Source of the DNA: an uncultured bacterium
Lineage (GTDB): Bacteria > Patescibacteriota > Minisyncoccia > Phycocordibacterales > CAIRYW01
NCBI GenBank assembly: GCA_963766885.1
Contig: CAVYBO010000002.1
Span: 293,048 to 357,047 of the forward strand
Direction: 5' to 3'
DNA length: 64,000 nt
Below, in pieces: positions 19,159 to 61,639 of the stretch. Position 1 is the first letter of the stretch. Each line of letters begins with the position of its first letter. A program made the translations under genes and the position numbers. Below the pieces are notes generated by a model that made no database searches, was not told the DNA's origin, and saw nothing but the letters and a program-made list of their open reading frames with translations.

Positions 19159-19208
19159 TTGTAGTTTTTATTAATACGCCCAGACTCGTCATATAGTTTC
19201 GGAAAATA

Positions 19209-19568: not shown

Positions 19569-19572
19569 ATTT

Positions 19573-20184: not shown

Positions 20185-20269
20185 AAGATAATTATATCAG
20201 AATTAATCTTCATCGAATGCAAAAGAAAGCAACCCAAGCCCGGCCGTCTGCCTTAAATAAAATTTAATA

Positions 20270-20671: not shown

Positions 20672-20742
20672 TTTATTTTTAAATTATTTTTTAATTAAGT
20701 AAATTATAACACGAAACAGCATCTTTGTGATAAGATGCCGCA

Positions 20743-22011: not shown

Positions 22012-22019
22012 AAAGATTT

Positions 22020-22562: not shown

Positions 22563-22612
22563 AAAAAAACTATATCAGGTTTTTTAAAAAAATCAATACT
22601 AGAGTTTCAGTA

Positions 22613-32965: not shown

Positions 32966-32970
32966 ATCTT

Positions 32971-41775: not shown

Positions 41776-41843
41776 AATTTTATTATATCAAAAGTATTTG
41801 CTGGGTGTGTGGGACGATGTTGGAACCTTTATAAAGCAAGAAA

Positions 41844-44593: not shown

Positions 44594-45999
44594 TGAATTA
44601 ATTTAACAATCCCTTTATCTGCATCGACTTCTACTAAATCTCCATCTTTGAGAATTGAAGTAATTCTAGGAATTCCAACTATTGAGGGAATATTAAGCTC
44701 TCTAGTAATAACGGAAACATGGGCAGTTATTCCTCCTTCTTCTGCTAAAACCGCAGAAACCTTGTGAAGTATGGGGACAAAATCTGGACTGGTATTATGA
44801 ACCACCAAAATATCTCCTTTCTCGACTTTTTTAAATTGTTCCGGCAATAAGACGATTTTTACCCTTCCTTTGGCTTTACCCTTACAAGCAGATCTGCCTT
44901 TTATTTCCTTATTTGCATCTGCTTTAGGCTCAATATATTTATTAATGAAATCTTCTGCTTTATCTCCAGAAATATAAAACTTATATCCTTTCGGCTTAGC
45001 AACAAAAACAATAGTTTTTTTGTAAAGATTTAATTTATCTTTTGAAAGTTTTTTACCCTTAAGAAGATTAATTAGATCTTCATGCATTAGATTTTTCAAT
45101 TGGCCAACAGGAAGACCTATTTGTTTGGAAGCAATTTTCCATAATTTTTCAAATTCAAACTGCGCTTTATTTATATAGAACTTGTAACAATCTTTCATCC
45201 AAGAAGTCTCACCAATCAACTTTAAAATGACTTGGTCTCCAGAATATTTCTTTAAGTATCCATTGAGCTCTTTTAACCTAGATTTGTGTTCTGAAATAAT
45301 TTTTTTCTTGATAATCTCTGGCTTTTCTTTTTTGAGAGCATCTAGTCTTTTTTTGTAATATCCGTATGTTCGTGGTTGTTCGTCGTAATAACCGAGAGTT
45401 ATGTGTTTGTATGAATTAAATATTTTATTTAATTCTAATGATAAATCTTTCTTTGGGTTGTTTTTAATCTTAAGCACTAAATCACACAAAGCAATCTCTT
45501 CTTCGGCAAAAAAACTTAATCTATTCGAAACATTACAAGCAGAAAGAATATTTACTGATTCGCTTCCGAACTTATCAGTTATTTTATTAATTATAGCTTT
45601 ATCAATTTTTCTAAGATATGTAGCCGTGTGATGCATATACTCAAAAAGATCAAAGCAACTTGCAAATGACTTTGAAAGAGATTTGCTTGGGTCTGATTCA
45701 TTAATACAAATATTTTGGATTTTTGTTGAAAGGGTTTTTATCTCCTTTTCCAGAGACTTCATTCCACCTGGTTTAGATAGTCTTTCAAAAGCTGAATTTA
45801 TTATTTTAGGAATAAATGAAAGATAAAGTTTAAAAGAAGTATTTTTAAATACAACTACTCCAGGAAGATCTAGGCTCCACGAACCTTCTTTTGCCAAATA
45901 ATTATAAAGAACATTGGCAACCCAAAGATAACTTGCCCTTCCTGCTTCGTATTGAATTGGAACTTTTTCAATATCTTTTTCAAAATTTTTAATATCCAT
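44590..45999 (-). CDS. PEP-utilizing-enzyme mobile-domain protein, paralog 3
   Basis: 469 aa. C-terminus EIKGRSACKGKAKGRV ... EEGGITAHVSVITRELNIPSIVGIPRITSILKDGDLVEVDADKGIVKLIQ, with the His retained in an AH context. Confidence 0.8.
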   Translation of the reverse strand: MDIKNFEKDIEKVPIQYEAGRASYLWVANVLYNYLAKEGSWSLDLPGVVVFKNTSFKLYLSFIPKIINSAFERLSKPGGMKSLEKEIKTLSTKIQNICINESDPSKSLSKSFASCFDLFEYMHHTATYLRKIDKAIINKITDKFGSESVNILSACNVSNRLSFFAEEEIALCDLVLKIKNNPKKDLSLELNKIFNSYKHITLGYYDEQPRTYGYYKKRLDALKKEKPEIIKKKIISEHKSRLKELNGYLKKYSGDQVILKLIGETSWMKDCYKFYINKAQFEFEKLWKIASKQIGLPVGQLKNLMHEDLINLLKGKKLSKDKLNLYKKTIVFVAKPKGYKFYISGDKAEDFINKYIEPKADANKEIKGRSACKGKAKGRVKIVLLPEQFKKVEKGDILVVHNTSPDFVPILHKVSAVLAEEGGITAHVSVITRELNIPSIVGIPRITSILKDGDLVEVDADKGIVKLIQ

Positions 46000-46001
46000 A
46001 A

Positions 46002-47012
46002 TTATTTAAGAATTTTCACTATTCCCCTATCTGCATCCACTTCCACTAAATCTCCGTCTTTCAAAACCTTTGTCGCTATCTTAGTACCAACAATGCAAGG
46101 CTTTTGAAGCTCTCTTGCAACAATTGCAGCATGACAAGTTACACCGCCCTCATCTGTAATAAAAGCTGAGGCTCTTTGCATGGCAGGAAGAAATGATGTT
46201 CTTGTCATTGGACTAACTAGAATGTCTCCATCACTAACATTTACTAAATCATTTTCGTTAGTAATGATAATCACTTTACCTGAAACTTTACCTTTGAAAG
46301 CTGGGTTTCCTTTAAACTCAGAAATATTCTCATCAATTTCATTCTTGATATTTTTTAGAAATTCTTTGGTATAGGCTACAGCCTCTTCTCCGATTAATAA
46401 GCGTGCTTTTCCTGCTATCGATTCTATAACGTATTGCTTTTGCCTTAGGGTTAATAAACCTGCATCAAGATTTAAAGATACAATTTCATCAGGTAGAGCG
46501 TATTTGAGTAGCTCGGTATCAATATTCAAAGTTTCTGAAATCTGTTTATATAACTTTGGAAGAAATTCCGAAGTTGCTATATGCTGCGCGCTTTTCGTTC
46601 CTCTTAAGTCCGAAATCATATCAATCGACTCTTGGTCTGTGACATAAAATCCCAGGAAAAAAGAAGTAATCTCATGGATCCATAACTGTCTAAATATTTT
46701 CATGAATTCCTCTCTGTTTTCAAGAGGATCTTTTTCAAAAAAAGGAAATACTAACTCTTCGTATTTTTTAAATCCTTTCAGAAGCTCCAAAAAACTTCCT
46801 GCTTTTGCTAGATTTTCAAATCCATCTAATTCTTTCTGATCCACATACCTTTCCATGATGCCATGCTTACCTAAGACAATCGTATCCAGGTTAAAACCAC
46901 CCTCTTTTATAGGAAAATTTGGATATACTTCAGTAGCTAACCATATTTCGAAAAGTCCAAACACTCTCGTTGCCACAAGATTCCAAGCTCTATTTTCATC
47001 AGTATTATCCAT
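46002..47012 (-). CDS. PEP-utilizing-enzyme mobile-domain protein, paralog 2
   Basis: 336 aa. C-terminus EFKGNPAFKGKVSGKV ... TDEGGVTCHAAIVARELQKPCIVGTKIATKVLKDGDLVEVDADRGIVKILK. Confidence 0.8.
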   Translation of the reverse strand: MDNTDENRAWNLVATRVFGLFEIWLATEVYPNFPIKEGGFNLDTIVLGKHGIMERYVDQKELDGFENLAKAGSFLELLKGFKKYEELVFPFFEKDPLENREEFMKIFRQLWIHEITSFFLGFYVTDQESIDMISDLRGTKSAQHIATSEFLPKLYKQISETLNIDTELLKYALPDEIVSLNLDAGLLTLRQKQYVIESIAGKARLLIGEEAVAYTKEFLKNIKNEIDENISEFKGNPAFKGKVSGKVIIITNENDLVNVSDGDILVSPMTRTSFLPAMQRASAFITDEGGVTCHAAIVARELQKPCIVGTKIATKVLKDGDLVEVDADRGIVKILK

Positions 47013-47015
47013 ATT

Positions 47016-48527
47016 TTAAGAAGATTTATTTTTGATTATTCTTACTATTCCTTTGTCTGCATCCACTTCAACCATATCACCATCTTTCAGAATTTTAGTA
47101 GCAATCTTGGTGCCAATGATACAGGGCTTCTTCATTTCACGGGCAATTATAGAGGCATGACAAGTGACACCGCCCTCATCCGTGACAAAGGCGGCCGCTT
47201 TCTGCATCGCCGGTAAGTAATCAGGACGAGTCATAACAGCAACCAAAACATCACCAGTCTGAACTTTATAAATTTCCTCAACACTCTCAATTATTTTTAC
47301 TTTACCCCTGACAATACCTTTGCTCGCTACAAATCCTTTTAATTCTTGATTTCCTTTCTTATATTCTCCGGTACCGATGCGATCCAGTTTTTCAATCAAA
47401 GGTAAATCAGTTGTAACATCATATTTGCCCTTAACCCAGAGAATAATGCAGTAGTTTATTCTTCTATCCAATTCTTTAGTGTCTATCTTTTCATTTAAAA
47501 CTGCTTCCATTTCTGGAGGAAAAGCATACTTCAATTGTTCCAAAGAATATTTGGTTCTTTTTGATATTTCTTCAAGCAGTTTACTGAAGTAGTGCGTTGC
47601 CCAGAAAGTTCCCTTTTTACGTTCATCCTGCCACCAGTTGAAATCGTCCGTGATTGCAAGCAAAGTGATTTCTTCTTTGGGTAACATAAGCGTTTTGATA
47701 AGGTGTAATTTTTGTTTCTTGTGATCCGAAGCAATTGATTTAATTTCATTTATTTTCTTATCGATTCCTTTAACATCAAGTTTCAGGTATTGATTAATTC
47801 TTTTTTCAAAAAATTCCTCTGTAAGAATATTATCCTTAACATAATTGTTTTGAGTCCAGAAATAATTTTTCTGATGTTTTTTAATAAGAGGATTTTTAAG
47901 TTTTGGATTTGCTTTTACTTTCTTTGCGACTTTTAGTAGCTCAATATCTTCTAACTGTAGGAACGATGTAAAAATTGGAGACGTTAGGATTCCGAAATAT
48001 TCTACAAACCTATTTTCCAATCCTTTGCTTTCAAGAAAGGTTTTAATTTTTGAAGCAATCAATGTGTCAGTACTTAAAGTAAAACCGTCAATTAATCCGG
48101 AGCTGTTCAATTTCTTGGTGTAAATATCAGCCAAACTATTATATTTATCCAAAAGTTCTTTCTTGCTTAAAGAACCGAGGTCAAGACTGTTTAATTTTAA
48201 GCAGTCCTTATAAAACCTTTCTTGCCAAGGCATAAAGTTACTAATCATCTTTCTACTAACTTTAGGATCTTTTTTTGAAGCTTTGATTATTTTGGAAGTT
48301 GTATATTCAAGCTCACCCAAATTGTGATACCAATCCGCTCTATGCTTTGAAAAACCGGCGTATGCAATTCTTTGACCATATTGGTACTTAGTTCTCTGAA
48401 TAGATGATATATGCGAATCACCTAGGAAAAACATAAAGTGGGGACAAGCATCAAATCGTTGCCTGTACCAAAGACTTTTTTCTATCTCCGGCAATCTTGA
48501 TTGTAGTAATTTAGAGTACTTAATCAT
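47016..48527 (-). CDS. PEP-utilizing-enzyme mobile-domain protein, paralog 1
   Basis: 503 aa. C-terminus ELKGFVASKGIVRGKV ... TDEGGVTCHASIIAREMKKPCIIGTKIATKILKDGDMVEVDADKGIVRIIK. Confidence 0.8.
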   Translation of the reverse strand: MIKYSKLLQSRLPEIEKSLWYRQRFDACPHFMFFLGDSHISSIQRTKYQYGQRIAYAGFSKHRADWYHNLGELEYTTSKIIKASKKDPKVSRKMISNFMPWQERFYKDCLKLNSLDLGSLSKKELLDKYNSLADIYTKKLNSSGLIDGFTLSTDTLIASKIKTFLESKGLENRFVEYFGILTSPIFTSFLQLEDIELLKVAKKVKANPKLKNPLIKKHQKNYFWTQNNYVKDNILTEEFFEKRINQYLKLDVKGIDKKINEIKSIASDHKKQKLHLIKTLMLPKEEITLLAITDDFNWWQDERKKGTFWATHYFSKLLEEISKRTKYSLEQLKYAFPPEMEAVLNEKIDTKELDRRINYCIILWVKGKYDVTTDLPLIEKLDRIGTGEYKKGNQELKGFVASKGIVRGKVKIIESVEEIYKVQTGDVLVAVMTRPDYLPAMQKAAAFVTDEGGVTCHASIIAREMKKPCIIGTKIATKILKDGDMVEVDADKGIVRIIKNKSS

Positions 48528-49549
48528 TTTAGTGTTGTAATGGGCCTGCTTTGAGTAATATAGAATTTTCTTTTCTCATATGCCCATTCGATATCACAAG
48601 GGAAATCGTAGTGATTTTCTATTTTTAAGATGAGATCTGAAAATTTCAATATTTCTTTGATAGAAAGGCATTGCTCATTAGCTTTTTTATTTGGGATGTT
48701 TTTCCAAACGTTGCCTCCAGTGGATTTTCTAAATAGCCCTTTTGATTTTTCTGAAACATTTACATCAATGATATTCCTTGGTTCTTTTTCAATTACATAG
48801 CTGTCTGGGGTGATTTGTCCAGAAACAATAGCTTCTCCGAGTCCCCAAGAGGCTTCAATGATCATTTGATTTCTATCTTCCGTAACAGGATGAACAGAGA
48901 AGACGATTCCTGATTTTTCACTATTTACCATTTTTTGGACTACTACAGCCACAGAAATATGAGTATCATTTAATCCTTTTTCAAATCGATAAAATATAGC
49001 TCTCGGGGTAAAAAGTGAAGCAAAACATCTTTTGATATTTTCTTCCAGATTTTTACTTGTTGTATTGAGAAAACTATCTAGTTGACCAGCCCAAGCATGC
49101 ATTGCCCCATCCTCTGCCGTGGCACTTGAACGGACAGCAACAAACTTTGCATTTAATTTCTTAAATGAAGTTTTTACTTCTTTCAGCATTTCTTTGGGCA
49201 TTTTTGCCTCAAGAATCATTTCTTTGATATCTTCGGAAGCTTTTTCAACTTCTTCCATTTCCTTATGGTTTATCTTGTCCAAAATTGCATCAATTTCTTG
49301 AGTTAGATCATTTTCGGATAGAAAGTATTCAAAAGAGCTTGAAAGTATTACAAATCCTGGTGGAACTGGGATTTTGGCATTTATCATTTCACCCAAAGAT
49401 GCCCCTTTACCACCGGCTATTGGAGAGTCGTTTTTGCCCAAATCCTTGAAAAATTTGATGTATTTCACACCAATATTATGCAGTAAATTCACATTATTAT
49501 AAAGGCTAAGAATAAGGCGTCTCGGGCGCAATAACCTAGCTCGTGTCAA
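48524..49549 (-). CDS. Stand-alone PPDK_N-type ATP-binding (ATP-grasp, pyruvate phosphate dikinase / PEP synthase / rifampin phosphotransferase N-terminal) domain protein
   Basis: 341 aa. VKYIKFFKDLGKNDSPIAGGKGASLGEMINAKIPVPPGFVI ... DIEWAY...ITQSRPIT matches the PF01326 start and end. No swivel or TIM-barrel domain. The true start may be an internal GTG (VNLLHNIGVKY), as the annotated N-terminal 25 aa are encoded by a GC-rich patch. Confidence 0.8.
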   Translation of the reverse strand: MTRARLLRPRRLILSLYNNVNLLHNIGVKYIKFFKDLGKNDSPIAGGKGASLGEMINAKIPVPPGFVILSSSFEYFLSENDLTQEIDAILDKINHKEMEEVEKASEDIKEMILEAKMPKEMLKEVKTSFKKLNAKFVAVRSSATAEDGAMHAWAGQLDSFLNTTSKNLEENIKRCFASLFTPRAIFYRFEKGLNDTHISVAVVVQKMVNSEKSGIVFSVHPVTEDRNQMIIEASWGLGEAIVSGQITPDSYVIEKEPRNIIDVNVSEKSKGLFRKSTGGNVWKNIPNKKANEQCLSIKEILKFSDLILKIENHYDFPCDIEWAYEKRKFYITQSRPITTLK

Positions 49550-49666
49550 CTGCGATCTAAGGTCTGGTGCGTACGTAGTTAGACGTCGTAAGGGTATTCT
49601 GACAACTTTTCATCTTCATGAGACACCCGTCTAGGTCTAAGTAAATTTCAAAATATAATGAACAGT
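49550..49666 (-). other. GC-rich, potentially structured 5' leader/intergenic element upstream of the phosphotransferase array
   Basis: An approx. 115-nt patch (plus strand ...cgtctcgggcgc...ggtctggtgcgtacgtagttagacgtcgtaagggtattctgac...gagacacccgtctaggtc) is far above local GC. Contains complementary TAGACG/CGTCTA and palindromic ACGTACGT. Confidence 0.3.
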
Positions 49667-50806
49667 TTATTGCTCTAGAGTCTTTCTCCCTTCCTCAAGT
49701 TCACTACCAGAAAAAACCGTGCTCTTTTTATCCCAATCATTTGTGATTAAATCTGCCTTACGTTTTAACAATTCTATCAATTTGTCGGTATCAATATCTC
49801 CTTCAAAAAGAAAAGCGTAATTTGGATCTTGTTTCAGAATTTTTACCATTTTTTCTTTAGTTGTCCATGGATCATTATCATGTAGAACAACTTTTACATG
49901 ACTAAGGGAATCTTCAAATAAAACAGTATTCTTACTTCCTACTTCTGAGCCGATTGAAACAACCATGCTTTCAGGTGCATCTAATTTTCCAACTGATGTA
50001 ATCTTAACCTGAACCCTAGTATCTTTATGATCTTCTCGTTGGTGATGACGACCAAGGATATATGAATCCTCGTATTGAATCTCGGCTTCACTCACTTTAT
50101 CTTGACGCATTCTTAAATATCTAAGCCACCTTACTGGTGTTTTTGCAGAATCCCACTCAAAAATACCTTCATCCATCCGATTGAATTCTGAATTAACTAG
50201 TTTTTTACTTCCAACTGGATCAAGTTCATAAACCATTTCAGCTGAACCGTACGGAGAATCAGTTTGATTTTCTGAGGCTGTGTTTATAGTCGCAAACGAT
50301 TTATTCATTAAAGAATCTCTAACAAACATAAATTGAATATTCCCGAGGCCTTCACTAGGCGCAGGTTCAGATACACTGATCTCGCGAATCTTATCATCAG
50401 TTTGGGATCGCTTAGGAACCGTAGACAATTTAATGAGCCGCATATTAGTGCCCTTTGCATAATACGGATCAAATCGATCTTCAAAGGAAACTGCCCAATA
50501 TTTTCCTGGATATTCAGCAATAATTGGATAAAATTTCTGCGGCAATTCTATCGCAAACGGATTATCTGAAAACTCATTATTCACATCAGAATATCTAAAA
50601 CCTCCTTCATGTCCCAAATTATTATCCTGAGCAAATTCAAAAAGTTCTCTAGTAAGCCCGAAGAGATTCATCACCTCTTGCCTATTAACAGTAGCAAGAG
50701 TTTCTGGTTGTTCAGAAAGAGTATCTGGCGCCTCTTCAACATTATCGGGCTGATCACCTTGTTTAACTTTAAAAGCTTTTAGACTTCTTTCGAAAGGATT
50801 GTCCAT
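49667..50806 (-). CDS. Hypothetical protein (379 aa), immediately upstream of and co-oriented with the phosphotransferase array
   Basis: No recognisable domain. Acidic N-terminus. Confidence 0.45.
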   Translation of the reverse strand: MDNPFERSLKAFKVKQGDQPDNVEEAPDTLSEQPETLATVNRQEVMNLFGLTRELFEFAQDNNLGHEGGFRYSDVNNEFSDNPFAIELPQKFYPIIAEYPGKYWAVSFEDRFDPYYAKGTNMRLIKLSTVPKRSQTDDKIREISVSEPAPSEGLGNIQFMFVRDSLMNKSFATINTASENQTDSPYGSAEMVYELDPVGSKKLVNSEFNRMDEGIFEWDSAKTPVRWLRYLRMRQDKVSEAEIQYEDSYILGRHHQREDHKDTRVQVKITSVGKLDAPESMVVSIGSEVGSKNTVLFEDSLSHVKVVLHDNDPWTTKEKMVKILKQDPNYAFLFEGDIDTDKLIELLKRKADLITNDWDKKSTVFSGSELEEGRKTLEQ

Positions 50807-50993
50807 GTAAAAAATATAACATATTTCTCACTATTAGACCGAGTTCGGCTAGTGTGAATCCTTGTCCCTGACCAGTCATGGACTCCCACCAAATTAGACT
50901 TGTAAGCAGTTTTTATAAATACACCTATTTTATAGCCCATTTTATATGGAGTGTTTGGAATTTTCAAATACAATGCGCTACAATTAAATTGCT

Positions 50994-51443
50994 ATGAAAG
51001 TAGGAGATGACACTAGAGAAAGGTATAAAAAAGCTATTAATGAGTCCTTCGTTAAGGACCCTTTTATGCCCTTGAGAGATTTACAAAAATATCTTGAAAA
51101 GAAAGGGGTCTATATTTCGAATTTGAATTACCTCAGTGAACTACGTAAAGAAGTCACAAAAGATAATGCTAAAAACGTTAAGGAAGAAACTCGATATAAA
51201 AAATACTCAGAATATTCAGAAAGCTGTCGTATCCTTAGAACTGAGTTATTTAAAATTGCTATTCCTGGATGTCTTGGTGGAAATGATCCTGAAACGACCC
51301 CCAAAGAAAAAATTGCTGCTATAAATGAACTCATGAAACTTGACAAGAACTTAGTTGAAGTTGGATTTATTCTCGGAATATTTGAAGAACATGAGCCCCC
51401 AGTAAATCTAAGAACTGGTAAAGTAAACTATAAACCTCATTGA
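50994..51443 (+). CDS. Hypothetical protein
   Basis: 149 aa, Lys/Glu-rich. No domain recognised. Confidence 0.4.
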   Translation: MKVGDDTRERYKKAINESFVKDPFMPLRDLQKYLEKKGVYISNLNYLSELRKEVTKDNAKNVKEETRYKKYSEYSESCRILRTELFKIAIPGCLGGNDPETTPKEKIAAINELMKLDKNLVEVGFILGIFEEHEPPVNLRTGKVNYKPH

Positions 51444-51453
51444 TTAATTTTCC

Positions 51454-52278
51454 CTAAACAAATTTTTGATTGTTTAATATTAAGTTATAAATCTCTGAAA
51501 GAAAATGTGCAAAAGATAATTCATCCATTATATAAGAAGATGGATGAGCGCAACTATTTCTTATATCAAAAAGATGTAAGATTGCTTGAAGTTGATTTAA
51601 ATCTAGAGAAATCATACCGGAAATTATAATAGTTAGGTCTTTTTCAAAAACCTCTTGTAATTCATTTTCAATTTTAATATTAAATTCTTTATTAAATTTT
51701 TTATAAAATCCAGACTGACTTGCTTTTAGTTTTTTTGATGTTGAGTTGAAACTAGCAAAACCTTTTTTTATTACAAAATCACGAAGTCTATCGACAACGG
51801 CACATCCTGCCATAACAGTCGCTGCTTTATAACATTGATTTTTTGCAGCCCTAAAAGCTTCTTCGTAGTATTGTCTTTCATCATTCGAAGTAATCTTTAC
51901 AAGAATTTTTTGAGATATACCTTCCCAAACCATCGGCGAGGAGCGCCCAGTTCTAATCATCGGGATCAAAATATCTCTCTGTATATTTTTTCTTAAGGGA
52001 CTCAAAAGCGCAATGTATGAACTTTTTCTGTTATTAGCAGTTGACATTTGGATCATCTTTTCCATTACTGAATCTACTTTGTTTATCTCTTCGTCAGAAA
52101 TAACAGACTCTTTTCTTATTTTGGTCGAAAACTCCTCAAACCAACGGCTTGAAAGATTAGATATTTTATCTTTAAGATTTTTTTGAGAGATAAAAGCAGA
52201 TTTGTTTGCTCTTATCTTGTTTACTACATCATCGACATACGTTAGATAGGTCTCAAGTTCCTCTATTATTTCTTTCAT
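51454..52278 (-). CDS. Putative HEPN-domain protein (Rx4H motif), abortive-infection-like
   Basis: 274 aa. C-terminal LHLFDIRNSCAHPSSY contains R-x4-H in the context typical of HEPN RNase motifs. Otherwise alpha-helical. Confidence 0.45.
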   Translation of the reverse strand: MKEIIEELETYLTYVDDVVNKIRANKSAFISQKNLKDKISNLSSRWFEEFSTKIRKESVISDEEINKVDSVMEKMIQMSTANNRKSSYIALLSPLRKNIQRDILIPMIRTGRSSPMVWEGISQKILVKITSNDERQYYEEAFRAAKNQCYKAATVMAGCAVVDRLRDFVIKKGFASFNSTSKKLKASQSGFYKKFNKEFNIKIENELQEVFEKDLTIIISGMISLDLNQLQAILHLFDIRNSCAHPSSYIMDELSFAHFLSEIYNLILNNQKFV

Positions 52279-52286
52279 TTAATTTC

Positions 52287-52889
52287 CTAAGAGGCAAGCT
52301 CTTTTACCAAATCTGCAGCTAACTTTTTACCAATTGGAGAAAGTTTGTTTGTTGTTCCAGGTTTAAATCCAGCAAAAATTTCTTTCATTGCTTTAAGATT
52401 TGTTGTAAAATTTGCAGCGTCATATGTACCATAAGTCACACACATTTCTCTAAGCTCCTCAGTTGGGACATCAAAAGAGCCCTCCATAAATTGATGTCTT
52501 ATTCCTATAAGCAATGCAAGATTTTTTTGTCTTCGGCTAGTTTTATTAGATTTAAGATCAGTGACTTCAATACTTATATTCCCTAATTCATCTATACTAA
52601 AAACTTTACGGATTAAATCATCACTAATACCGTTTGGGGTTGTAAAGACTTTTATTCTTTTGTTTACTTCATTAGGAATATCTGATACACCCGCAACAAT
52701 AGTATCAGTTATTGAAACCGGAGGTTTATGAGATTCTCCTTTTAGCAAAGAATTTAAGAGAATTTCGAAGCATTTTTCCTGAAGGTTTTGGGGGCACAAT
52801 TTAACTAGTTCAAGAATTTCCTTTAACTCTTTTTTAAAATCATCTTTTTGCATGGCTAAAATAATAACACAAATTTCTTTATAGGCCAA
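52287..52889 (-). CDS. Hypothetical protein (200 aa), in an operon with the flanking defence-like genes
   Basis: 8-nt gap to the downstream HEPN gene. No known domain. Confidence 0.4.
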   Translation of the reverse strand: MAYKEICVIILAMQKDDFKKELKEILELVKLCPQNLQEKCFEILLNSLLKGESHKPPVSITDTIVAGVSDIPNEVNKRIKVFTTPNGISDDLIRKVFSIDELGNISIEVTDLKSNKTSRRQKNLALLIGIRHQFMEGSFDVPTEELREMCVTYGTYDAANFTTNLKAMKEIFAGFKPGTTNKLSPIGKKLAADLVKELAS

Positions 52890-52958
52890 GCTTATTTTGA
52901 ACTACTCTTAGATCTTCTAACATAATTCTAAACAGCCGTATCTCTTGATAAATAATTA

Positions 52959-54359
52959 TTAATATCTTGTATCTACATAATATCCATTCCTACCATTGCA
53001 AGGATAGCCATCTTTAGTTTTATGGGGACTTAATGTCACATTACCATATGTGCTTCTAGTAAAGCGTCTACCACAATAACTACATTCATAAATATATTTC
53101 GGACCAGAAAAACTTCTCGCTATAACAGATCTATGTCTTGCCGCACGAAATGGTTTGTTTATATCAAAAAAATAAGGATTTTCTGGTCTTTCTCCGGATT
53201 TGGATAACTCTATTTGATATCGAGGAATAAATTTTTCTTCTGTGTTTACTATCCCTTCAACTTTATCTGCAACAAAACATCTTACACCGACTCCGCTACC
53301 ACCACTAAGATTATAGGCGTAAAAATACTCCCGTTGAGATCCGTCCTTGCGTTGCATATATTTTAGCGAGTATGGTTCAATCATTCTATCTGAATCTGTG
53401 TAACGGATTTTCAAAAGAGTTTGTTCTCTTGCACCTTTCATTATTACTGCACGCGCCTCAGGACTGAAATATACAAACTGAGCATACCCGTTGTCGGTAT
53501 AAATACCAAAAAGAGATTCAACGTCAGATACAAAAGATGTGATAGCATCTTCTACATCAATAAAAAGTTGTTTTGCACAGACTATACCTTTTACCCAATA
53601 GGTTCTGAAATAATCAAAAGCTGTCATCTTCAGTACATCTTTTAACGCGTAAGGATTTCTTTCAAAAATGGTCTTTTTTACAAAGGTTTGTACCACCTCC
53701 TCTTTATTCAAGTTTCCTCCTAACAACCGGATTGAGTGGACATAGTCAAACAAATCTGGAGCATGCTGTCTTTGCATTAAACATTTTAGTTTTGTTGCAA
53801 TTATCTCCTCAAGTTTCATACACCTGATCTTACATACGACCTCAGCAGCATCAGAATAAGGATGAATAAGATAAACATCTTGTATATCGAGAAGAACTTT
53901 ATCGAATCTAGTGATATCCATCGATATCTTTATTTTCATATGATCTGATCCTCCATTAAAATCCTTAAAATAGATTCGTGCTTCATATACTTTCAAGCCA
54001 GGTATTGGGGCTTCGGCTGCTGCAAACTTTTCTTCAATTTTATTATCTTCTTTAACAAAAGTTATACCTGCTTTTTCCTGAATAAAATCACAAACCTTAT
54101 TGATTTCACCCAATAGTAAATTTTGATCAATATCACCCATGATTCCAAAATCTAAGTCTGAAGAAAATCGAGTATTTTCAAAATACCCTTTACGAAGAGC
54201 ATTTCCTCCTTTTAGAAAGATCTCATTTTTTAGATCACTTATTGTGAAAAGGCCAAAAAGAAACCAGCCAAATAGATAATCCCTTTCGACGTTGGTCGGG
54301 TGAATCTCAAATTCTTTTGATTTCGCTTCAATTTCGTCTCTTAGAATCATAACCGCCAT
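52959..54359 (-). CDS. AbiEii/DUF1814-type nucleotidyltransferase fused to a WYL domain and C-terminal zinc ribbon
   Basis: 466 aa. NTase core FLKGGNALRKGYFENTRFSSDLDFG (AbiEii KGGTAL...RFSEDIDF-like pol-beta fold). WYL-like LLKIRYTDSDRMIEPYSLKYMQ...REYFYAYN...VRCFVADKVEGI. C-terminal YECSYCGRRF...CNGRNG. Confidence 0.7.
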   Translation of the reverse strand: MAVMILRDEIEAKSKEFEIHPTNVERDYLFGWFLFGLFTISDLKNEIFLKGGNALRKGYFENTRFSSDLDFGIMGDIDQNLLLGEINKVCDFIQEKAGITFVKEDNKIEEKFAAAEAPIPGLKVYEARIYFKDFNGGSDHMKIKISMDITRFDKVLLDIQDVYLIHPYSDAAEVVCKIRCMKLEEIIATKLKCLMQRQHAPDLFDYVHSIRLLGGNLNKEEVVQTFVKKTIFERNPYALKDVLKMTAFDYFRTYWVKGIVCAKQLFIDVEDAITSFVSDVESLFGIYTDNGYAQFVYFSPEARAVIMKGAREQTLLKIRYTDSDRMIEPYSLKYMQRKDGSQREYFYAYNLSGGSGVGVRCFVADKVEGIVNTEEKFIPRYQIELSKSGERPENPYFFDINKPFRAARHRSVIARSFSGPKYIYECSYCGRRFTRSTYGNVTLSPHKTKDGYPCNGRNGYYVDTRY

Positions 54360-54430
54360 TATACCCCTCTAGGTCATTTGGTACGATTTTTAAACGGCTG
54401 GACGTCTGGAACGATGTTGGAACTGTATTG

Positions 54431-55121
54431 CTAAGATAGCCAAGTGATACCATCTTTGTCTATTCGTGCCGAATTAATCGGTAATCCTATGTCTGGCGTG
54501 CCAGCGTCAATTTCAAGTTGTACAAGAAATCTCGCTCCTTTTTCTGTCGAAATGATACTCCCGGTACCATGTTTTTTTAGATATTCTTGAATTACTTTAG
54601 CGTGGCCAAGATAAAAAATATGTCTACCTGCAAGTCGCTCTGTGTCAATAATTAGTTCTCCTTTTTCATTTAACTTTGCAGCGAAACGAATAGCGATAGT
54701 AGAAGGCCCATCCATTCTCCCAATGAGCAAGAATGACACATGTTCCTTTCTTATCACCTTCAGTTTCATTTTTAAAAACATCTGGTTCATTAGTTTTAAT
54801 TTTAAGTAAGAATTTCTTAAGCGCTTCCGAAATATTTGTTTCTAATTTATTAATTGTACTAGGAACTGTCTGACCATCCTGTATGGAAGCTTCAACTATT
54901 TTAGCTACATCAAAATCCCCACCGTGATGTTTTACCAAACCACTTACCCCGAAGAGATTGTCTTTATATTCAAAAAGTTTTTTTACTTCACTTTGACTTT
55001 TTTGTTTTCCTCCACCAACAAAAGTACCCATTCCGTCAGCTGCAATTACAACCATTTGAGAATTTTGAATTGCAACAATAGTTGTTCCATAACGTATTGT
55101 TTTTTTGATTTTTTTTATCAT
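54431..55121 (-). pseudogene. HslV / proteasome-beta-like Ntn hydrolase with a 12-aa propeptide, split across two frames (frameshift or sequencing error)
   Basis: Frame 1 (55121-54666): MIKKIKKTIRYG|TTIVAIQNSQMVVIAADGMGTFVGGGKQ...[26 protein letters not shown] aligns with HslV [21 protein letters not shown]...[23 protein letters not shown]. Frame 2 (54790-54431) continues with HVSFLLIGRMDGPSTIAIRF..., proteasome-like. The two frames overlap by 125 nt. Confidence 0.6.
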
Positions 55122-55163
55122 TATAAATTGGAAACAATAAAATAGATACTCCTTTTAATTGGC

Positions 55164-55838
55164 TCAATTTTCTTCAATATTTTGTAGTAGTTTACTCATA
55201 AGAGTAAAAACCCTATCGAAATTCTTCTTCGAATCTAATTTAGTTTTTTGTCCTATCGGTACTAAAGATTTAATAACCCTTTTCATTTCATTTCGAAATT
55301 TTGAGTTTGTTTTATTCCCCGAATGCTGAATTATATTTCTTATAGAATTTAAAACATTAAAATAATGCCCCTGTTTATCATCTTTAAAGACTTTAATATT
55401 AAATTTTTCTAATAAAAATTTTTTCCACTCTTTGATTTCGTAGGATTTATTAATAGCAAATGCATCAATAAAATATTCTTTTACTTCCTCAACATTAGAA
55501 AAATCTTTTACGTCATCATATGTTGCCACTTTATCAGAAGAGTAGGACTCAGGATATTTAACAAAAAGCTCTTTCAAAAACTCAAACATAAAACATTCAA
55601 AATTAGAGAAAAAGGCAACAAAACCCAATTCGTAGAGTTTATCAATCTGTTTTGGATCTACTTCAAGTAAATCCTTAAATTTTTCATAATCAGGTCGCGT
55701 CTTTGCTTTTGTATAGTTCAAAAATTCTTGAGTGGCAATCGTTTGAGCTTCTAGTGCACGTATAAGTTTATAGGTAGCCTGAAGTTCACCCTTTAGATTT
55801 ATTACTGAATCAAATTTATTTAAGTTTTTTATAGTCAC
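55164..55838 (-). CDS. Putative HEPN-domain protein (Rx4H motif)
   Basis: 224 aa. C-terminal NVLNSIRNIIQHSGN contains R-x4-H. All-alpha. Confidence 0.45.
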   Translation of the reverse strand: MTIKNLNKFDSVINLKGELQATYKLIRALEAQTIATQEFLNYTKAKTRPDYEKFKDLLEVDPKQIDKLYELGFVAFFSNFECFMFEFLKELFVKYPESYSSDKVATYDDVKDFSNVEEVKEYFIDAFAINKSYEIKEWKKFLLEKFNIKVFKDDKQGHYFNVLNSIRNIIQHSGNKTNSKFRNEMKRVIKSLVPIGQKTKLDSKKNFDRVFTLMSKLLQNIEEN

Positions 55839-55922
55839 TTAAATGAAGATAGGTCTAATAGTTTGGGATTTTTCATAAAAGATGCTTATAATTTGTTTTT
55901 CATTCATATAACGACTTTTTAA

Positions 55923-57005
55923 CTATTCGTTCTCCTTTTTATCCTCTTTTTTGTAACCCTCTGATAGGAAACCACTACTTAATCCGTAAAATTTATTCTG
56001 CTGTAATTTAAATATTTTCTTATTTCTTAAATCAATTTGTTTTTTTGAATTGTATAAAGCCTTTTGTTCTTCCAAATGTTTTATGGTTTCCTCATCATCA
56101 TCAGCTTTTGGCTCGCGAGGTTTCTCAATGGTAGGGGTTATAACTTCTGCGCTTACACCATTTTCAAAATGTTTCAGCAATAACTTAAAAAGTATTCTTA
56201 TGTTACTTTTGTTTTCGTGGTTTTCAATTTTTAATTGTTTTGTAAGTTCTTCAATTATAGCTTCACTTTTTTCTTCCTTGTCAGCGTCATTAATATCATC
56301 CATAGCCTTCTTTCTGTCATCTCTGAGATGTTCGTAAGCCTTTTTTGCCGCCTCCGTCATTTGAATTGTTTCGTATATTTTAAGAGCGTGTTCAAGCGCA
56401 ATACCAAAATAATGTGCAAGTTGTTCACCTGTTTGTATAAATATTTGTATTGTTCCGTTACTTACATAACTAATTATGAATTCTTTATCCTGATTAGTCG
56501 CTGTTGCAATTTCAACCAAAAATAATTTTAAGTCATGTAGAACTTCTTCAAAATTTGTTAATTTTTGGTATTCAAGTGGAAAAGAAAATCCGATCTCATA
56601 TTCTTTTTCAGTTAGTTCTCTTGCTTCAATATCTAGAGCATTGAGAGAATTTTTAATTGTATTTAGTTTGTCTATAGCCTCTTGACGTTGTGTTGTAAAA
56701 TCTGTAAGTTTTTTTAAAACCTCATGTCCTTGGCTACTTAAGATATTGTTTAACTCTATCCATGTTCGATCTCCAAAAAAAGTTTCTATCTTCAAATCTT
56801 CAAGAATTTCAAAATCTGTTAAAGCATAGTTAGATAGGCGTGTTTTATTAAGTTCTTTTTCAAGAGAACTTAATTCAGTATTTAATACATCTGGTGTATT
56901 TTGAGTATAAAGGGCAAGTATATTTTGGAATTTAGCCTGAAGTCCAAAGTTTTTTTCGTCTTGTTGAATATCCTCTATAACTTTTAGTAGTTTACCTGTA
57001 TCCAT
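55923..57005 (-). CDS. Hypothetical acidic coiled-coil protein
   Basis: 360 aa, Glu/Lys-rich, predicted long coiled coils. Confidence 0.4.
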   Translation of the reverse strand: MDTGKLLKVIEDIQQDEKNFGLQAKFQNILALYTQNTPDVLNTELSSLEKELNKTRLSNYALTDFEILEDLKIETFFGDRTWIELNNILSSQGHEVLKKLTDFTTQRQEAIDKLNTIKNSLNALDIEARELTEKEYEIGFSFPLEYQKLTNFEEVLHDLKLFLVEIATATNQDKEFIISYVSNGTIQIFIQTGEQLAHYFGIALEHALKIYETIQMTEAAKKAYEHLRDDRKKAMDDINDADKEEKSEAIIEELTKQLKIENHENKSNIRILFKLLLKHFENGVSAEVITPTIEKPREPKADDDEETIKHLEEQKALYNSKKQIDLRNKKIFKLQQNKFYGLSSGFLSEGYKKEDKKENE

Positions 57006-57048
57006 ATTTTAGTTTATAACATATTTTTTCATTTTTATCAAAAATGTT

Positions 57049-57834
57049 CTAGTTTAACCTATTAACAATTTGATTAAGAAAATCTCTAGTCTGCGAATCC
57101 ACAGCACCATAATCAGTATTTATCGGCGTCCTTGTAATGACATTCTCGTAAACATCAGCAAAATCTTCTGAGGGAGAAGAAGCATAACTTTCAGTAGGAT
57201 CATTTCCATCATCGTCTTCTAAGGGCATATTTGCAGGTATACCTCTAAGTGCATAATATTCTTTCCATTCTTGAGCTGTTAAAGTACCTGCAACAGCATG
57301 GCCGAGTTCGTGTGTAAGATCTCCTGCAAAATTATTGTTTAACACAATTTTGTTTATGTATATCAATGACTGACCGCTTCTATATCTGCTATATGAAGCC
57401 CCTTCTGAAAGCCACATCGTATTTAGAGGTGGTAGCTTAGCGGATAAGCCGTTGCTTGGCTCGATGATGTATTGATTATCTGAGTATGCCAAACTATTGA
57501 CAATAATTATCGGAATATTTTTTAACATACTCTCAGGAAATTTTGCATTGTAAACAATTTGAGTAATCTGATTTTTTAAATCGTCAGTTAAGTCATTTGT
57601 ATTCGGGTAATCTATTTGTCCTAGATAAAAAGTGTAGCCGAGATTATTTACCTGTTCTAAAGGAATTTGATTAGATGATGAGGGGTTTGATTGTTTTTCA
57701 GAAAGATTGTTTACAAAAGCGTGTAGTTCATAGCAAAAAGTTTGCGTTGGACAGTCTGTAATTCTCCATTGAAAGAAGATATATGTTCCGATTAACAGAA
57801 TAAAAATTATTATGAATGAATATGTATTTTTCAT
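57049..57834 (-). CDS. Secreted/membrane-anchored putative zinc metallopeptidase (HExxH)
   Basis: 261 aa. N-terminal signal anchor and LTHELGHAVAG motif. Confidence 0.5.
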   Translation of the reverse strand: MKNTYSFIIIFILLIGTYIFFQWRITDCPTQTFCYELHAFVNNLSEKQSNPSSSNQIPLEQVNNLGYTFYLGQIDYPNTNDLTDDLKNQITQIVYNAKFPESMLKNIPIIIVNSLAYSDNQYIIEPSNGLSAKLPPLNTMWLSEGASYSRYRSGQSLIYINKIVLNNNFAGDLTHELGHAVAGTLTAQEWKEYYALRGIPANMPLEDDDGNDPTESYASSPSEDFADVYENVITRTPINTDYGAVDSQTRDFLNQIVNRLN

Positions 57835-58035
57835 TTTTTAAACGCAAAAAGCCCACCACATAGGTGATTGCTTTCGCAACCCATATCGGTTTCCCAATAT
57901 GACCAGTAACGGTGACCCCATATGATGGGTTCTTTATTCGTTACTGGTTTTTTGCCATGCCATTAAAAATTAATGGTTTAGGCCCTATTTAGTTGTAAAG
58001 AAATTATAACCCAAACTTTTAAAAATTACTCCTTC

Positions 58036-58908
58036 GTGTATTCTTATAGCACTCAAATGACAGACTTAGCCGAAAGCCTTAATACGCGCCTTAACTTAGC
58101 CGTCCAGAGCACATCGGACAGAGACTTTTACCAGTGTCTCTATCACTATTTTGATTTCATAGAAAAAACGCCAGAACTGAAAAAGATTTTTGAAGATAGT
58201 GAGAAAGACTATTCAGAAAAACACGGTAAGCGATGGGAAAAGCGTCCAATGACAGATGATGAAGCTGAAGAGGCAGAATCTCAAACCATTAAGTTAGAGC
58301 GTTTTAACTTGTATGCTGTGGGATGCACAATTTATGTAAGAATATATTTGCCGATTGACGATTACAAAAATACTGATGCGCCAGATAATAAACAAGACCC
58401 CGTTGCCCTTCTTCTTGTTCGCGGAATGGATTACACCGTCAAGCTAAAAAAATGGAGCGAAAAAACTTTGAAAATATATAACAAATGGTTTGATGGTAAG
58501 CGTAATCTTTACGAATCAGAACTGAAACGTTTTCATGTCATGCTTTTAGATGAGTTAGCAAAGCCAAAACCAAGGACAACAAGTAAACCAGAAATTATTT
58601 TTGATAAAGAAAACAGTATCTTAAAAATAGATGACAAAGAAGTCCATATAAAACTAAAAAATGATTTACCCAATTCGCATTATGTTTTAGAGTATGTTTT
58701 TACTAACGAAGACGGTCTAAAAGAAAAATCTTTTTATAGCGATATCCTAGAGTCAAAATTTCCTGCTGAAAAAATGGACTGGCGATCTATTTATCGTGCT
58801 TGTAACGACATAAACAAAAAAGTTAGCGAACAAGCCAACATAAATAAATTTTTTATAGTAAAAACTGGTAAAACAGGCTATGCGCAAATAAATTCTGACT
58901 ATTTGTAA
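58036..58908 (+). CDS. Hypothetical protein (290 aa), first gene of a plus-strand mobile module
   Basis: No known domain. Followed by a weak CCCC-GA-GGGG hairpin plus T run (58957-58979). Confidence 0.45.
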   Translation: MYSYSTQMTDLAESLNTRLNLAVQSTSDRDFYQCLYHYFDFIEKTPELKKIFEDSEKDYSEKHGKRWEKRPMTDDEAEEAESQTIKLERFNLYAVGCTIYVRIYLPIDDYKNTDAPDNKQDPVALLLVRGMDYTVKLKKWSEKTLKIYNKWFDGKRNLYESELKRFHVMLLDELAKPKPRTTSKPEIIFDKENSILKIDDKEVHIKLKNDLPNSHYVLEYVFTNEDGLKEKSFYSDILESKFPAEKMDWRSIYRACNDINKKVSEQANINKFFIVKTGKTGYAQINSDYL

Positions 58909-59113
58909 ATCGTACCCGTAAGATACCGTAATAGTGTTTAGAGACAATCTCCTCAACCCCGAGGGGATTTTATGTTTTTACAATTCAGCCAAATATTAAT
59001 AATACGCATCCAGAAATACTTTAAGCAGAAGCATAGTATCGATATTTCTGATGAAGTTGCCAATGAATACTTGCACTCTCTAGCAGGAATGTTTGCTGTG
59101 CTTGCAGAGATGG

Positions 59114-59168
59114 AAGGGGGCAAGTCCCCGCCCGATCCTCTTGAGAGGACGGGCGGGGCTGACCCCGT
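59114..59168 (+). other. Cluster of G+C-rich hairpins (GGGGG-caagt-CCCC; CCCCGCCCG-N15-CGGGCGGGG; GGGG-ctga-CCCC) immediately upstream of the rep gene; candidate double-strand origin / nick site or terminator
   Basis: 9-bp perfect GC stem 59126-59134/59150-59158 with nested and overlapping alternative stems. Exceptional GC for this genome. Sits 35-90 nt upstream of the Rep start. Confidence 0.4.
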
Positions 59169-59201
59169 TTGATGACTTGCTAATTACCCAACTCAATACA
59201 A

Positions 59202-59978
59202 ATGAAAAAGAAAAGTGAATACGTAAAAATTATTATTTCAGGAAAAAATTTAGAAACATATGAATACGAACGAAAACCAAACCCTATCAGACGGAGAAAT
59301 AGAAGAAAAAGCAAAGATACTGATGGTGATGAGAATCTGGGAGTTAGTGGACAAGATACATTTTCGGAAAGAAAGCTGGGGAAAAGACAAGATCACGCAC
59401 GACACGCTGGTATGGATTTCCGAAGGCTTGTTACATCTAACCTTGTCGGAACTGAACTTCCTGTACTCGTTACTCTTACCTATAAGGAAAACATCACCGA
59501 TATCAGTGTCGGATACAAGGACTATCGGTCTTTTATCCAGTCTCTCCGCTATAAATACGGAAAAGTTTTCAGGTACGTCTGTGTCCCAGAATTTCAAGGG
59601 CGTGGTGCCGTTCATTTTCACGCTTTGTTCTGGGGGCTACCCGCTGAATTATTTTTACATGAACGAAAAACTCGTCTCCTCGCAGGAATATGGGCAAAAG
59701 GATTTGTTTACGTAAAGTTTACTGATGGTCACGAAAAAATATCTTCTTACTTATCAAAATATATGCAAAAAGCTTTTATTGATCCAAGATTAAGAAATCA
59801 AAAGGCCTATGTGGCCTCTAGAAATATAAAGCGTCCATATGTAAAATCGGGCTCTTTTTCTGTTTCCTATATCATTGACGATTATGTTGGTGATGACAGC
59901 TCTCCTGTGATAGATAAGACCTACGACACTAAATGGCTAGGTAAATGTAGGTATCGGGTATTCAAGGCTTCCAATTAA
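59202..59978 (+). CDS. Rolling-circle replication initiator (HUH endonuclease; phiX174 gpA / Microviridae VP4-like Rep)
   Basis: 258 aa. Motif II KVFRYVCVPEFQGRGAVHFHALFWG (HUH) and motif III SYLSKYMQK (YxxKYxxK catalytic Tyr), with the spacing typical of superfamily I Rep proteins. Confidence 0.75.
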   Translation: MKKKSEYVKIIISGKNLETYEYERKPNPIRRRNRRKSKDTDGDENLGVSGQDTFSERKLGKRQDHARHAGMDFRRLVTSNLVGTELPVLVTLTYKENITDISVGYKDYRSFIQSLRYKYGKVFRYVCVPEFQGRGAVHFHALFWGLPAELFLHERKTRLLAGIWAKGFVYVKFTDGHEKISSYLSKYMQKAFIDPRLRNQKAYVASRNIKRPYVKSGSFSVSYIIDDYVGDDSSPVIDKTYDTKWLGKCRYRVFKASN

Positions 59979-60003
59979 TAAATAAAAGTGATTATATAAT
60001 GCT

Positions 60004-61518
60004 ATGAAATACATACTTTACTGCCGAAAATCAACAGAATCAGAAGACAGACAGGTTCTATCATTAGAATCCCAAAGAAAAGAACTCTTGGATTTGGCAA
60101 AATATGAAGACCTTGAAATTATTCTGACTCTTGAAGAAAGCAAATCGGCCAAAGAGCCAGGCCGTCCTATTTTTAACGAAATGCTTCAGATGATTTCTTC
60201 AGGAAAAGCAGATGCTATTCTCTGTTGGAAAATTGATCGTCTCACAAGAAATCCTGTTGATGGCGGACAAGTACAATGGCTTCTTCAAAACGGAATGATT
60301 AAACACATAAGAACTTTTGAAAAAAGTTTCTATTCTAACGATAATGTTTTGCTTATGGGTATTGAACAGGCTATGGCTAATCAATACGTTATAGATTTAA
60401 GTCTGAATGTTAAAAGAGGTCATCGTACAAAACTTGAAAAGGGCGACTGGCCTAATAAAGCTCCTTTTGGATATATCAACGATAAAGTCAGCAAAACTAT
60501 TAAGATTGATAAAAAATTTGGCTCATATGTTTTTAGAGCCTTTGAATTATATTCAACAGGTGGATACACGTTAAAACAAATTTCAGATATTTTGTATCAA
60601 GAAGGAATGAGAACAAAAACTGGAAATAAGATTAAGAAGAGCCAAATTCACAGAATTCTACACAATAAGCTTTACTGTGGCTTGATGGAGAAAGACGGAA
60701 AAACATATCATGGCAATCATGAAGCATTAATCTCTGTTTCTCTATTTAATAAAGTTGATGATGTTTTGCATGGCAGGCATCATCCTCGTCCAAATATACA
60801 CTTCTATTCTGCACGTGGATTTCTATCTTGTGCTTCTTGTGAATGTACTTTAACTACTGATACAAAAAAAGGTTACATTTATTATTACTGCACTAATGGC
60901 AAAGGAAACTGTGAGCAACATAAAAAATATCTAAGATCGGAAATGATTGATTCTCTTCTTTCAAGTATGTTCAAGGAACTGGCCTTTGACAAAGAGTTGA
61001 TTGAAATGGCTGCAGAAGCCTATAAAGAGAGAAATGAGCTCAAAAACGACTATACTGCTTCAAGCATAGAAAACCTCTCTAATGAGCTTAATTCTCTTCT
61101 GGAAAAAGAATCTGCCCTCGTAGATGGATATAGTTCTAAGATAATACGTGAAGAAGTTTATAGAGCCAAGGTTCAGGAAATACAAAACAAACGCATAGAA
61201 ATTGAGAAACAAATCAAAGAAACTGAAGCTAAAGGCGGAATAAGTAAAGTCACTTTCGAACAGATCAAAAATGTCTTTTTAGATAGTAGTAGAGCCTCAG
61301 AAACGTATTTGGAACTTACGGAAGAAGAAAAGAGAAAGATGCTAGAAAAATTACTTTCGAACGCTTCTATAGAAAACCAAAAAATCGTTAAATACCAATT
61401 CAAAAGTCCATATCAGATACTTGCAAATACCTCAAAAAATACCGATTTGGAAACACTACTGCGGGACCTGGATTCGAACCAAGATACCCTGCTCCAGAGG
61501 CAGATGTCCTACCATTAG
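60004..61518 (+). CDS. Large serine recombinase (resolvase/invertase catalytic domain + recombinase + zinc-ribbon + coiled coil)
   Basis: 504 aa. N-terminal YCRKSTESEDRQVLSLESQ (catalytic Ser), DRLTRN, and a downstream Cys cluster (CASCEC...CTNGKGNC). The last approx. 20 codons overlap tRNA-Gln on the opposite strand, so the true C-terminus may be shorter. Confidence 0.85.
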   Translation: MKYILYCRKSTESEDRQVLSLESQRKELLDLAKYEDLEIILTLEESKSAKEPGRPIFNEMLQMISSGKADAILCWKIDRLTRNPVDGGQVQWLLQNGMIKHIRTFEKSFYSNDNVLLMGIEQAMANQYVIDLSLNVKRGHRTKLEKGDWPNKAPFGYINDKVSKTIKIDKKFGSYVFRAFELYSTGGYTLKQISDILYQEGMRTKTGNKIKKSQIHRILHNKLYCGLMEKDGKTYHGNHEALISVSLFNKVDDVLHGRHHPRPNIHFYSARGFLSCASCECTLTTDTKKGYIYYYCTNGKGNCEQHKKYLRSEMIDSLLSSMFKELAFDKELIEMAAEAYKERNELKNDYTASSIENLSNELNSLLEKESALVDGYSSKIIREEVYRAKVQEIQNKRIEIEKQIKETEAKGGISKVTFEQIKNVFLDSSRASETYLELTEEEKRKMLEKLLSNASIENQKIVKYQFKSPYQILANTSKNTDLETLLRDLDSNQDTLLQRQMSYH

Positions 61519-61529
61519 ACGATCCCGCA
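61459..61529 (-). tRNA. tRNA-Gln (anticodon CUG)
   Basis: Minus-strand sequence TGCGGGATCGTCTAATGGTAGGACATCTGCCTCTGGAGCAGGGTATCTTGGTTCGAATCCAGGTCCCGCAG folds into a cloverleaf. 7-bp acceptor with U1-A72, D-loop AATGGTA, anticodon loop CTCTGGA (U33, CUG, G37), T-loop TTCGAAT, discriminator G. CCA not encoded. Confidence 0.85.
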
Positions 61530-61639
61530 AAATATTCAAGGAATACAAAAAAGCTGTTGTCAGCTTTTGAACCTATAGATTAGCGTTTTTTGGGTAAAAA
61601 ATCAAAAGCTGTGGATTTGTAATAAAGGAATAAGTGGTA

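Follow-up and report, generated by a model that had tools for sequence, protein, structure and literature searches.

A split proteasome-like Ntn-hydrolase gene on a Patescibacteria contig, probably a single 229-residue reading frame interrupted by an assembly error

Among the genes of a 64,000-nucleotide stretch of DNA (hereafter the window, meaning the whole stretch that was analysed), one that resembles the proteasome and HslV peptidases is spread over two overlapping reading frames. The locus therefore raises the question of whether the gene is decaying, is joined in translation by a programmed frameshift, or has been broken by an error in the sequence, and of what kind of enzyme it encodes. 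A preliminary description of this DNA had offered all three explanations side by side and had called the product an orphan HslV-like protease.

The split reading frame and its cause

The gene and its two parts are as follows.

54431 to 55121, minus strand: proteasome-like Ntn-hydrolase gene, 229 aa when the base inserted at 54710 is left out
54666 to 55121, minus strand: ORF of 151 aa, first half of the split gene, opening with MIKKIKKTIRYGTTIVAIQNSQMVVIAADG
54431 to 54790, minus strand: ORF of 119 aa, second half, shifted by +1 against the frame of the 151-aa ORF
54710, minus strand: extra base, read as T in the coding strand and as A in the plus strand, context GGA[T]GGG

The two ORFs overlap by 125 nt, exactly as previously described, and they are the halves of one gene broken by a frameshift. 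With the two halves provisionally joined as the query, a word-indexed search matched only P0001, which is the 151-aa ORF itself, and P0002, a protein of 257 aa (42 to 45% identity) that spans 97% of the joined sequence with a gap-free junction. Homology in the first frame extends up to ...GTCVILAHWEN (GTNIVLARWEN in P0002) and resumes in the second frame at PSTIAIRFAAKL (PTLVAINFAAKL in P0002). Since the first frame is homologous this far, the shift was placed at about 54707 to 54712 and not earlier in the overlap, and the position implied in the preliminary description has to be moved to a break at 54710. The break point coincides with a hairpin turn, WEN-GG-PST; in an AlphaFold2 model (described below), the shift falls in the hairpin joining strands 127-135 and 138-150, and according to this model the 151-aa product would miss half the fold.

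The extra base changes the frame by +1 after ...AHWENG, at a site that is not a homopolymer. Clustering at 90% identity grouped P0001 with an intact protein of 229 aa, P0151, from the Logan assembly of run ERR11630394. We compared 17,056 bp of Logan contig ERR11630394_753625 (19,669 bp in length; the compared part is referred to as L006) with window positions 61487-44431, and found no mismatch across the 17,056 aligned bp, the sole difference being one gap opposite the T at 54710. The gene order was the same in both, and the coding strand at the shift reads AAT GGA [T]GG GCC in the window and AAT GGA GGG CCT in the Logan contig. Removing the T yields ...AHWENGGPSTIAIRF... and an uninterrupted ORF of 229 aa, whose product aligns to P0002 without a gap across the junction. 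The single-nucleotide correction that restores one frame is thus already present in an independent assembly. Shifts in the T5A5 or AAGAAAGG runs, or the addition of a G to GGG, were also considered and were rejected, as the DNA alignment identifies the change as a T inserted at 54710. The truncated product was recorded only from the 596,164-bp NCBI/ENA contig, and no Logan contig encoding it was found.

These comparisons bear directly on whether a programmed +1 ribosomal frameshift could fuse the two ORFs in translation. The overlapping frames and the intact downstream frame are all that speaks for such a mechanism, whereas an otherwise identical allele has no shift at all. To see how the gene is organized in relatives, an exhaustive HMMER search with P0002 was used; it returned 640 representative clusters at E<1e-3 (192 at E<1e-10), and the approximately 640 homologue clusters all consist of single uninterrupted ORFs of about 250-270 aa, so that the shift is not conserved in the family. 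At the site itself, AAU GGA UGG GCC offers neither a P-site codon prone to slippage nor a stop or rare codon that could cause pausing, and frame 0 continues 14 codons further; neither the conserved shift nor the slippery or pausing site of a prfB-type programmed frameshift was found. Given the identical unshifted allele, the uninterrupted homologues and the lack of a slippery or pausing codon, we rejected the programmed shift, which we consider extremely improbable. Long-term decay of the gene, another of the earlier suggestions, is unlikely because there is not one substitution in 17 kb.

What remains is the choice between an error and a recent mutation, and to weigh an error against a real allele, three further Logan contigs of ERR11630394 were compared with the window.

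18222-22600: contig L008, 4,379 bp, no differences
37547-32529: contig L007, 5,020 bp, 6 mismatches and one indel
31862-26233: contig L017, 5,630 bp, 8 mismatches and 0 indels
31188-32965, minus strand: second ABC-transporter gene, broken into four ORFs, in tandem with an intact gene at 32971-34725

The indel in L007 is a G that is absent from the window at 32645, inside the second ABC-transporter gene. The four ORFs of this gene match ABC_membrane residues 2-71, 67-140 and 152-242, and then ABC_tran; as these are consecutive parts of ABC_membrane and ABC_tran, the gene must contain at least three frameshifts, the others lying near 32400 and 32000-32170. Eleven of the 14 mismatches are concentrated in 31383-33345; the Logan contigs end within that interval, at 31862 and 32529, while the remainder of the 32 kb compared with Logan is essentially identical. 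The clustered SNPs indicate that the community contains heterogeneous strains or that a segment has recombined. Two isolated mismatches (28104 and 34809) both fall, on the minus strand, within one 10-nt context, GCAGGACG[G>C]A, whereas AGGACGGA sites with another 5' context (21097 and 53340) are unchanged. This pattern resembles a base-calling error tied to a specific motif (methylation-type) in one or other assembly, and suggests that the long source contig carries residual technical errors.

The strain variation in this metagenome, with its 11 clustered SNPs and Logan contig breaks, means that a real insertion allele, in the minority or the majority, is possible. The insertion would then be a very recent loss-of-function mutation, for example one inactivating a costly or toxic island-borne hydrolase, and the intact allele would co-exist in the same or a sister population. 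The heterogeneity and contig breaks at 31.4-33.3 kb fit this explanation, as does the multiply frameshifted ABC-transporter gene at 31188-32965. So does the insertion site, which is atypical for a homopolymer error; homopolymers are the commonest place for indel errors in long reads, and the position of the extra base outside any such run counts against an artefact. On the other hand, the surrounding 17 kb carries 0 substitutions, the truncated product occurs in no Logan contig, the catalytic residues and the entire downstream frame are unblemished, and the same assembly has the motif-specific substitutions typical of technical error. We therefore regard a real insertion as possible but rather doubtful. 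With the signs of residual error in the long contig, including the indel at 32645 and the motif-specific mismatches, an artefact at 54710 is favoured over a recent null allele, with modest confidence. Accordingly, of the three options first proposed, a sequencing or assembly error is the one best supported, the independent assembly differing by exactly one base: the single additional nucleotide in the window assembly would have produced the two ORFs, the same strain, assembled independently, would carry the intact 229-aa gene, and the base itself is most probably an artefact of consensus calling or assembly in the long source contig, not a biological feature. The frameshift should thus be given no biological weight; it is best flagged as a probable assembly error, with a single ORF of 229 aa annotated.

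Fold, catalytic residues and N-terminal leader

Considering the repaired 229-aa protein, sequence searches gave faint signals for the proteasome superfamily. Pfam PF00227 (Proteasome) matched residues 10-61 with an E-value of 3e-4 and 19.8-20.8 bits, which is under the gathering cut-off of 22.4, and PHROGs returned the 'peptidase HslV family' (E 7e-5). In NCBIfam, 0 families matched the protein and none matched its neighbours; PADLOC gave no match for it, and a phmmer search of the PDB sequences with P0151 alone found neither proteasome nor HslV. The relatives were more informative. PF00227 was matched by 33 of 80 relatives (E<0.01; best 9e-7), and the NCBIfam HslV model (NF003964 / PRK05456) was matched weakly by five of the 80 (best E 1.2e-3). 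When a profile of the 80 members was run against the PDB, it found the betaproteobacterial proteasome homologue BPH (5ovu) with an E-value of 2.6e-5, HslV at about 1e-4 and many 20S subunits, and the profile alignments to all three begin at their Thr1.

The AlphaFold2 model of the repaired protein, built as a monomer on the 80-member family alignment, had a pLDDT of 93.9 and a pTM of 0.89. In a Foldseek search of the PDB with this model, the top 50 matches were all 20S beta subunits, with a probability of 1.00, E-values down to 3.4e-9 and TM-scores of 0.5-0.6; the predicted structure thus has the proteasome beta-type fold.

The predicted catalytic residues are encoded as follows.

55086 to 55121, minus strand: N-terminal leader MIKKIKKTIRYG, 12 codons, hydrophilic, not a signal peptide
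55083 to 55085, minus strand: Thr13 codon, predicted N-terminal nucleophile, Thr1 equivalent (aligned to BPH/HslV Thr1), nearly invariant
55035 to 55037, minus strand: Asp29 codon, Asp17 equivalent, the only invariant column in the 80 members
54978 to 54980, minus strand: Lys48 codon, Lys33 equivalent, at least 90% conserved
54939 to 54941, minus strand: Gly61 codon, equivalent of the Gly47 oxyanion hole, at least 90% conserved

The proteasome-like protein thus has the complete Thr1/Asp17/Lys33/Gly47 catalytic set, and in the 80-sequence family alignment Thr13 and Pro214 are likewise conserved in at least 90% of members. We considered whether the similarity to proteasomes and HslV might be spurious, the protein being no Ntn hydrolase at all. 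The sub-threshold Pfam score, the single-sequence phmmer search that missed both groups and TM-scores that reach only 0.5-0.6 are what could be held in favour of this. Set against them are the independent PF00227 matches among the family members, the BPH and HslV profile alignments that start exactly at Thr1, the uniform Foldseek result, and the fact that the Thr, Asp, Lys and Gly are the most conserved columns of the family and have proteasome-like spacing. A spurious similarity is hence very unlikely, and profiles and predicted fold together identify the repaired protein as a true, though distant, proteasome-like Ntn hydrolase of an unnamed family. The earlier designation HslV-like holds in the sense of this superfamily but not for HslV proper, since there is no NCBIfam match, the protein has 229 residues compared to about 175, and its predicted fold comes closest to 20S beta subunits. 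Similarly, an N-terminal alignment to HslV had been called convincing; profiles and predicted fold do show a relationship, but the single-sequence search of the PDB reveals none.

The N-terminus reads MIKKIKKTIRYG/TTIVAIQNSQMVVIAADG, and the 12-residue leader closes on Gly ahead of Thr13, as had been reported. In the same frame, a TAA stands 12 codons before the ATG and no other start codon is available, from which we conclude that the leader is real. By analogy with 20S beta subunits, the leader, as a putative propeptide, would be removed between Gly12 and Thr13, exposing Thr13 as the nucleophile, which would work together with Asp29, Lys48 and Gly61. From what is known of the family, leader removal would be autocatalytic and the activity would be that of a protease, not of a ligase or amidase. 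The protein would be active in the cytoplasm, without an HslU-type ATPase.

Relatives with predicted signal peptides and the island setting

Where the family members have a name at their source, it is always 'hypothetical protein', and none of them has a precomputed Pfam domain. In the alignment of 80, 72 members have Thr at the catalytic position and four have Ser, and this position is preceded by 13-77 residues that include a strongly hydrophobic segment. The residue immediately before the nucleophile (-1) is Ala in 49 of the 80 and Gly in 19, and small residues are found at -3. Judging from these sequences, most members have a typical predicted Sec signal peptide, with a putative signal-peptidase site abutting the nucleophile. 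A CPGxDCPxG loop, a VCK cysteine and a C-terminal C-P are further features of most members. In the window protein, the Cys loop is deleted and the VCK and C-terminal C-P cysteines are missing, and the Kyte-Doolittle maximum over 10 residues of its leader is -0.54 compared to about +2 to +3.7 in the family. The hydrophilic leader, the deleted Cys loop and the absence of the other cysteines suggest that it could be a cytoplasmic derivative that would need Gly-Thr autoprocessing.

Further homologous loci were sought in assembled contigs. Scans of genome contigs with P0002 and a 2-sequence alignment gave no matches, not even to the window's own genome, and hence no orthologues from named species, while a scan of metagenome contigs with a 4-sequence alignment gave eight loci, mostly short. 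No relatives were found in viral contigs, phages or plasmids. Across seven homologue loci no gene neighbourhood was conserved; the neighbours were a TPR protein, LOG/SLOG-like genes, folP-cdaA-glmM-pdxJ, a beta-lactamase and a kinase. At L018, an adjacent gene of equal size was considered as a paralogue and rejected. After P0002, P0003 (L002/L003) is the nearest exported homologue; downstream of it come a 110-aa ORF and a SLOG/LOG-like gene (LDcluster4/Lysine_decarbox). In L002, P0003 also has a group II intron reverse transcriptase and an integrase in front of it, which places this copy, too, in a mobile context.

The window gene lies on an island with the following features.

About 41818 to 61530, unstranded: low-GC mobile island carrying the proteasome-like gene, GC 30-35% compared to about 40%
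52959 to 54359, minus strand: AbiEii-type nucleotidyltransferase toxin domain (Pfam E 7e-24), 71 bp downstream of the proteasome-like gene
55164 to 55838, minus strand: upstream neighbour of 224 aa, 42 bp away, weakly HEPN-like (PADLOC CARF_HEPN, E 1.5e-4)
59202 to 59978, plus strand: rolling-circle Rep, on the island
60004 to 61518, plus strand: large serine recombinase, on the island, its ORF running into the tRNA-Gln
61458 to 61530, minus strand: tRNA-Gln, island boundary

A search for direct repeats at the island flanks gave none above 11 nt. The 19.7-kb Logan contig covers exactly the island segment and ends inside the tRNA; contig limits at the island ends are expected, because the junctions of a mobile island branch in the assembly graph. 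Elsewhere on the island, at 41844-49549 on the minus strand, lies an unusual array in which a PPDK_N (ATP-grasp) protein precedes five proteins in a row, 336-556 aa long, all of which end in a PEP-utilizers mobile (phosphohistidine) domain and have an N-terminal part without a Pfam match. As for the host, the best named homologues of the ABC transporter at 32971-34725 (76-77% identity) come from Parcubacteria, Pacebacteria and Moraniibacteriota MAGs, and on this basis it was assigned to the Patescibacteria (CPR). The 596-kb source contig could represent most of such a CPR genome.

The proteasome-like gene belongs to a series of seven genes read in one direction (57834-57049, 57005-55923, 55838-55164, the proteasome-like gene, 54359-52959, 52889-52287 and 52278-51454) with spacers of 8-84 bp, which includes the AbiEii-type gene and two weakly HEPN-like proteins. 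The AbiEii-type protein has a C-terminal extension of roughly 200 aa with a C2H2-like CxxC...H motif. In AbiE systems, the abiEi antitoxin gene usually sits upstream of abiEii; upstream of 52959-54359 no recognisable AbiEi antitoxin gene was present, and the proteasome-like gene is found there instead. Its location in the abiEi position offers no more than a lead toward a possible coupling with AbiEii. No AAA+ or HslU P-loop was found in the 64 kb, where all P-loops in real ORFs belong to ABC transporters, and the earlier statement that no HslU is encoded nearby can stand.

Taken together, these features would allow a broader, and tentative, reading that we consider unlikely as a whole: the family could be an undescribed Sec-exported branch of the superfamily, with the window copy a cytoplasmic offshoot on the tRNA-Gln island, beside AbiEii. 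In such a branch, signal peptidase and not autoprocessing would cut just before the Thr to give the active N-terminus, and the conserved Cys pairs (VCK, CPGxDC, C-terminal C-P) might stabilise the enzyme outside the cell. The copy in the window would be unique in having lost both the signal peptide and those cysteines and in having gone back to a Gly-Thr propeptide; a Patescibacteria island would have captured it in the abiEi position, where it might control or join a toxin or defence module. We found no description of a signal-peptidase route of Thr1 activation for proteasome homologues in the literature, and nothing relevant on exported proteasome homologues or on proteasome homologues in phage defence. 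Proteasome-fold enzymes apparently made for export, with a putative signal-peptidase site that would yield the catalytic Thr1, could be of interest to protease specialists. The same may hold for the only member found that appears to lack the signal peptide and those cysteines, which an ultra-small (CPR) genome carries on a mobile island alongside genes of toxin and HEPN type.

Comparison with known proteasome-like systems

The closest structural counterparts are the beta subunits of the 20S proteasome (PF00227, MEROPS T1). The window protein shares with them the alpha-beta-beta-alpha Ntn fold, predicted here, with 20S beta subunits as its best structural matches; a Thr nucleophile following the Gly that terminates the propeptide; equivalents of Asp17, Lys33 and Gly47; and a mature size of about 215 aa. 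However, it is only about 13-18% identical to them and its Pfam score is below the cut-off, its gene is accompanied neither by an alpha subunit gene nor by an AAA+ or Mpa/ARC partner, and its relatives appear to be mostly exported.

To HslV (ClpQ) there is homology at the level of the group, and the likeness lies in the N-terminal motifs TTIV...(A/G)D(G/S) and K..(G)(F/L)(A/S)G, which align, with a profile E-value of about 1e-4. HslV, however, has about 175 aa and carries its Thr straight after the initiator Met, in contrast to the 229 aa and 12-residue leader of the window protein, and it is encoded with hslU, whereas no HslU is present with the window gene in 64 kb. Based on the length, the leader, the lack of a match to the HslV model and the lack of hslU, the protein is not an HslV.

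BPH (5ovu, 5ovs) gave the best PDB profile match (E 2.6e-5) and is likewise an orphan without an ATPase partner (PMC5777263). Nevertheless, the match is limited to about the first 50 residues, and the rest of the protein, its length and the family signature (QLEID, PPI, CPGxDC) differ.

Finally, Fuchs, Alva and Lupas (2021) described 22 uncharacterised proteasome-like families with no conserved context and no AAA+/ATPase partners (PMC8665760). The present protein can be likened, by description, to their clusters (WPH, PHI, PMI, PHD, GPH and others), which are also remote, orphan, prokaryotic proteasome-like proteins. In that work, propeptides are stated for proteasome beta subunits and HslV alone and signal peptides are never mentioned (PMC8665760), while in the family described here most members have a predicted Sec signal peptide directly in front of Thr1. 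The window gene thus lengthens the growing list of orphan proteasome-like proteins.
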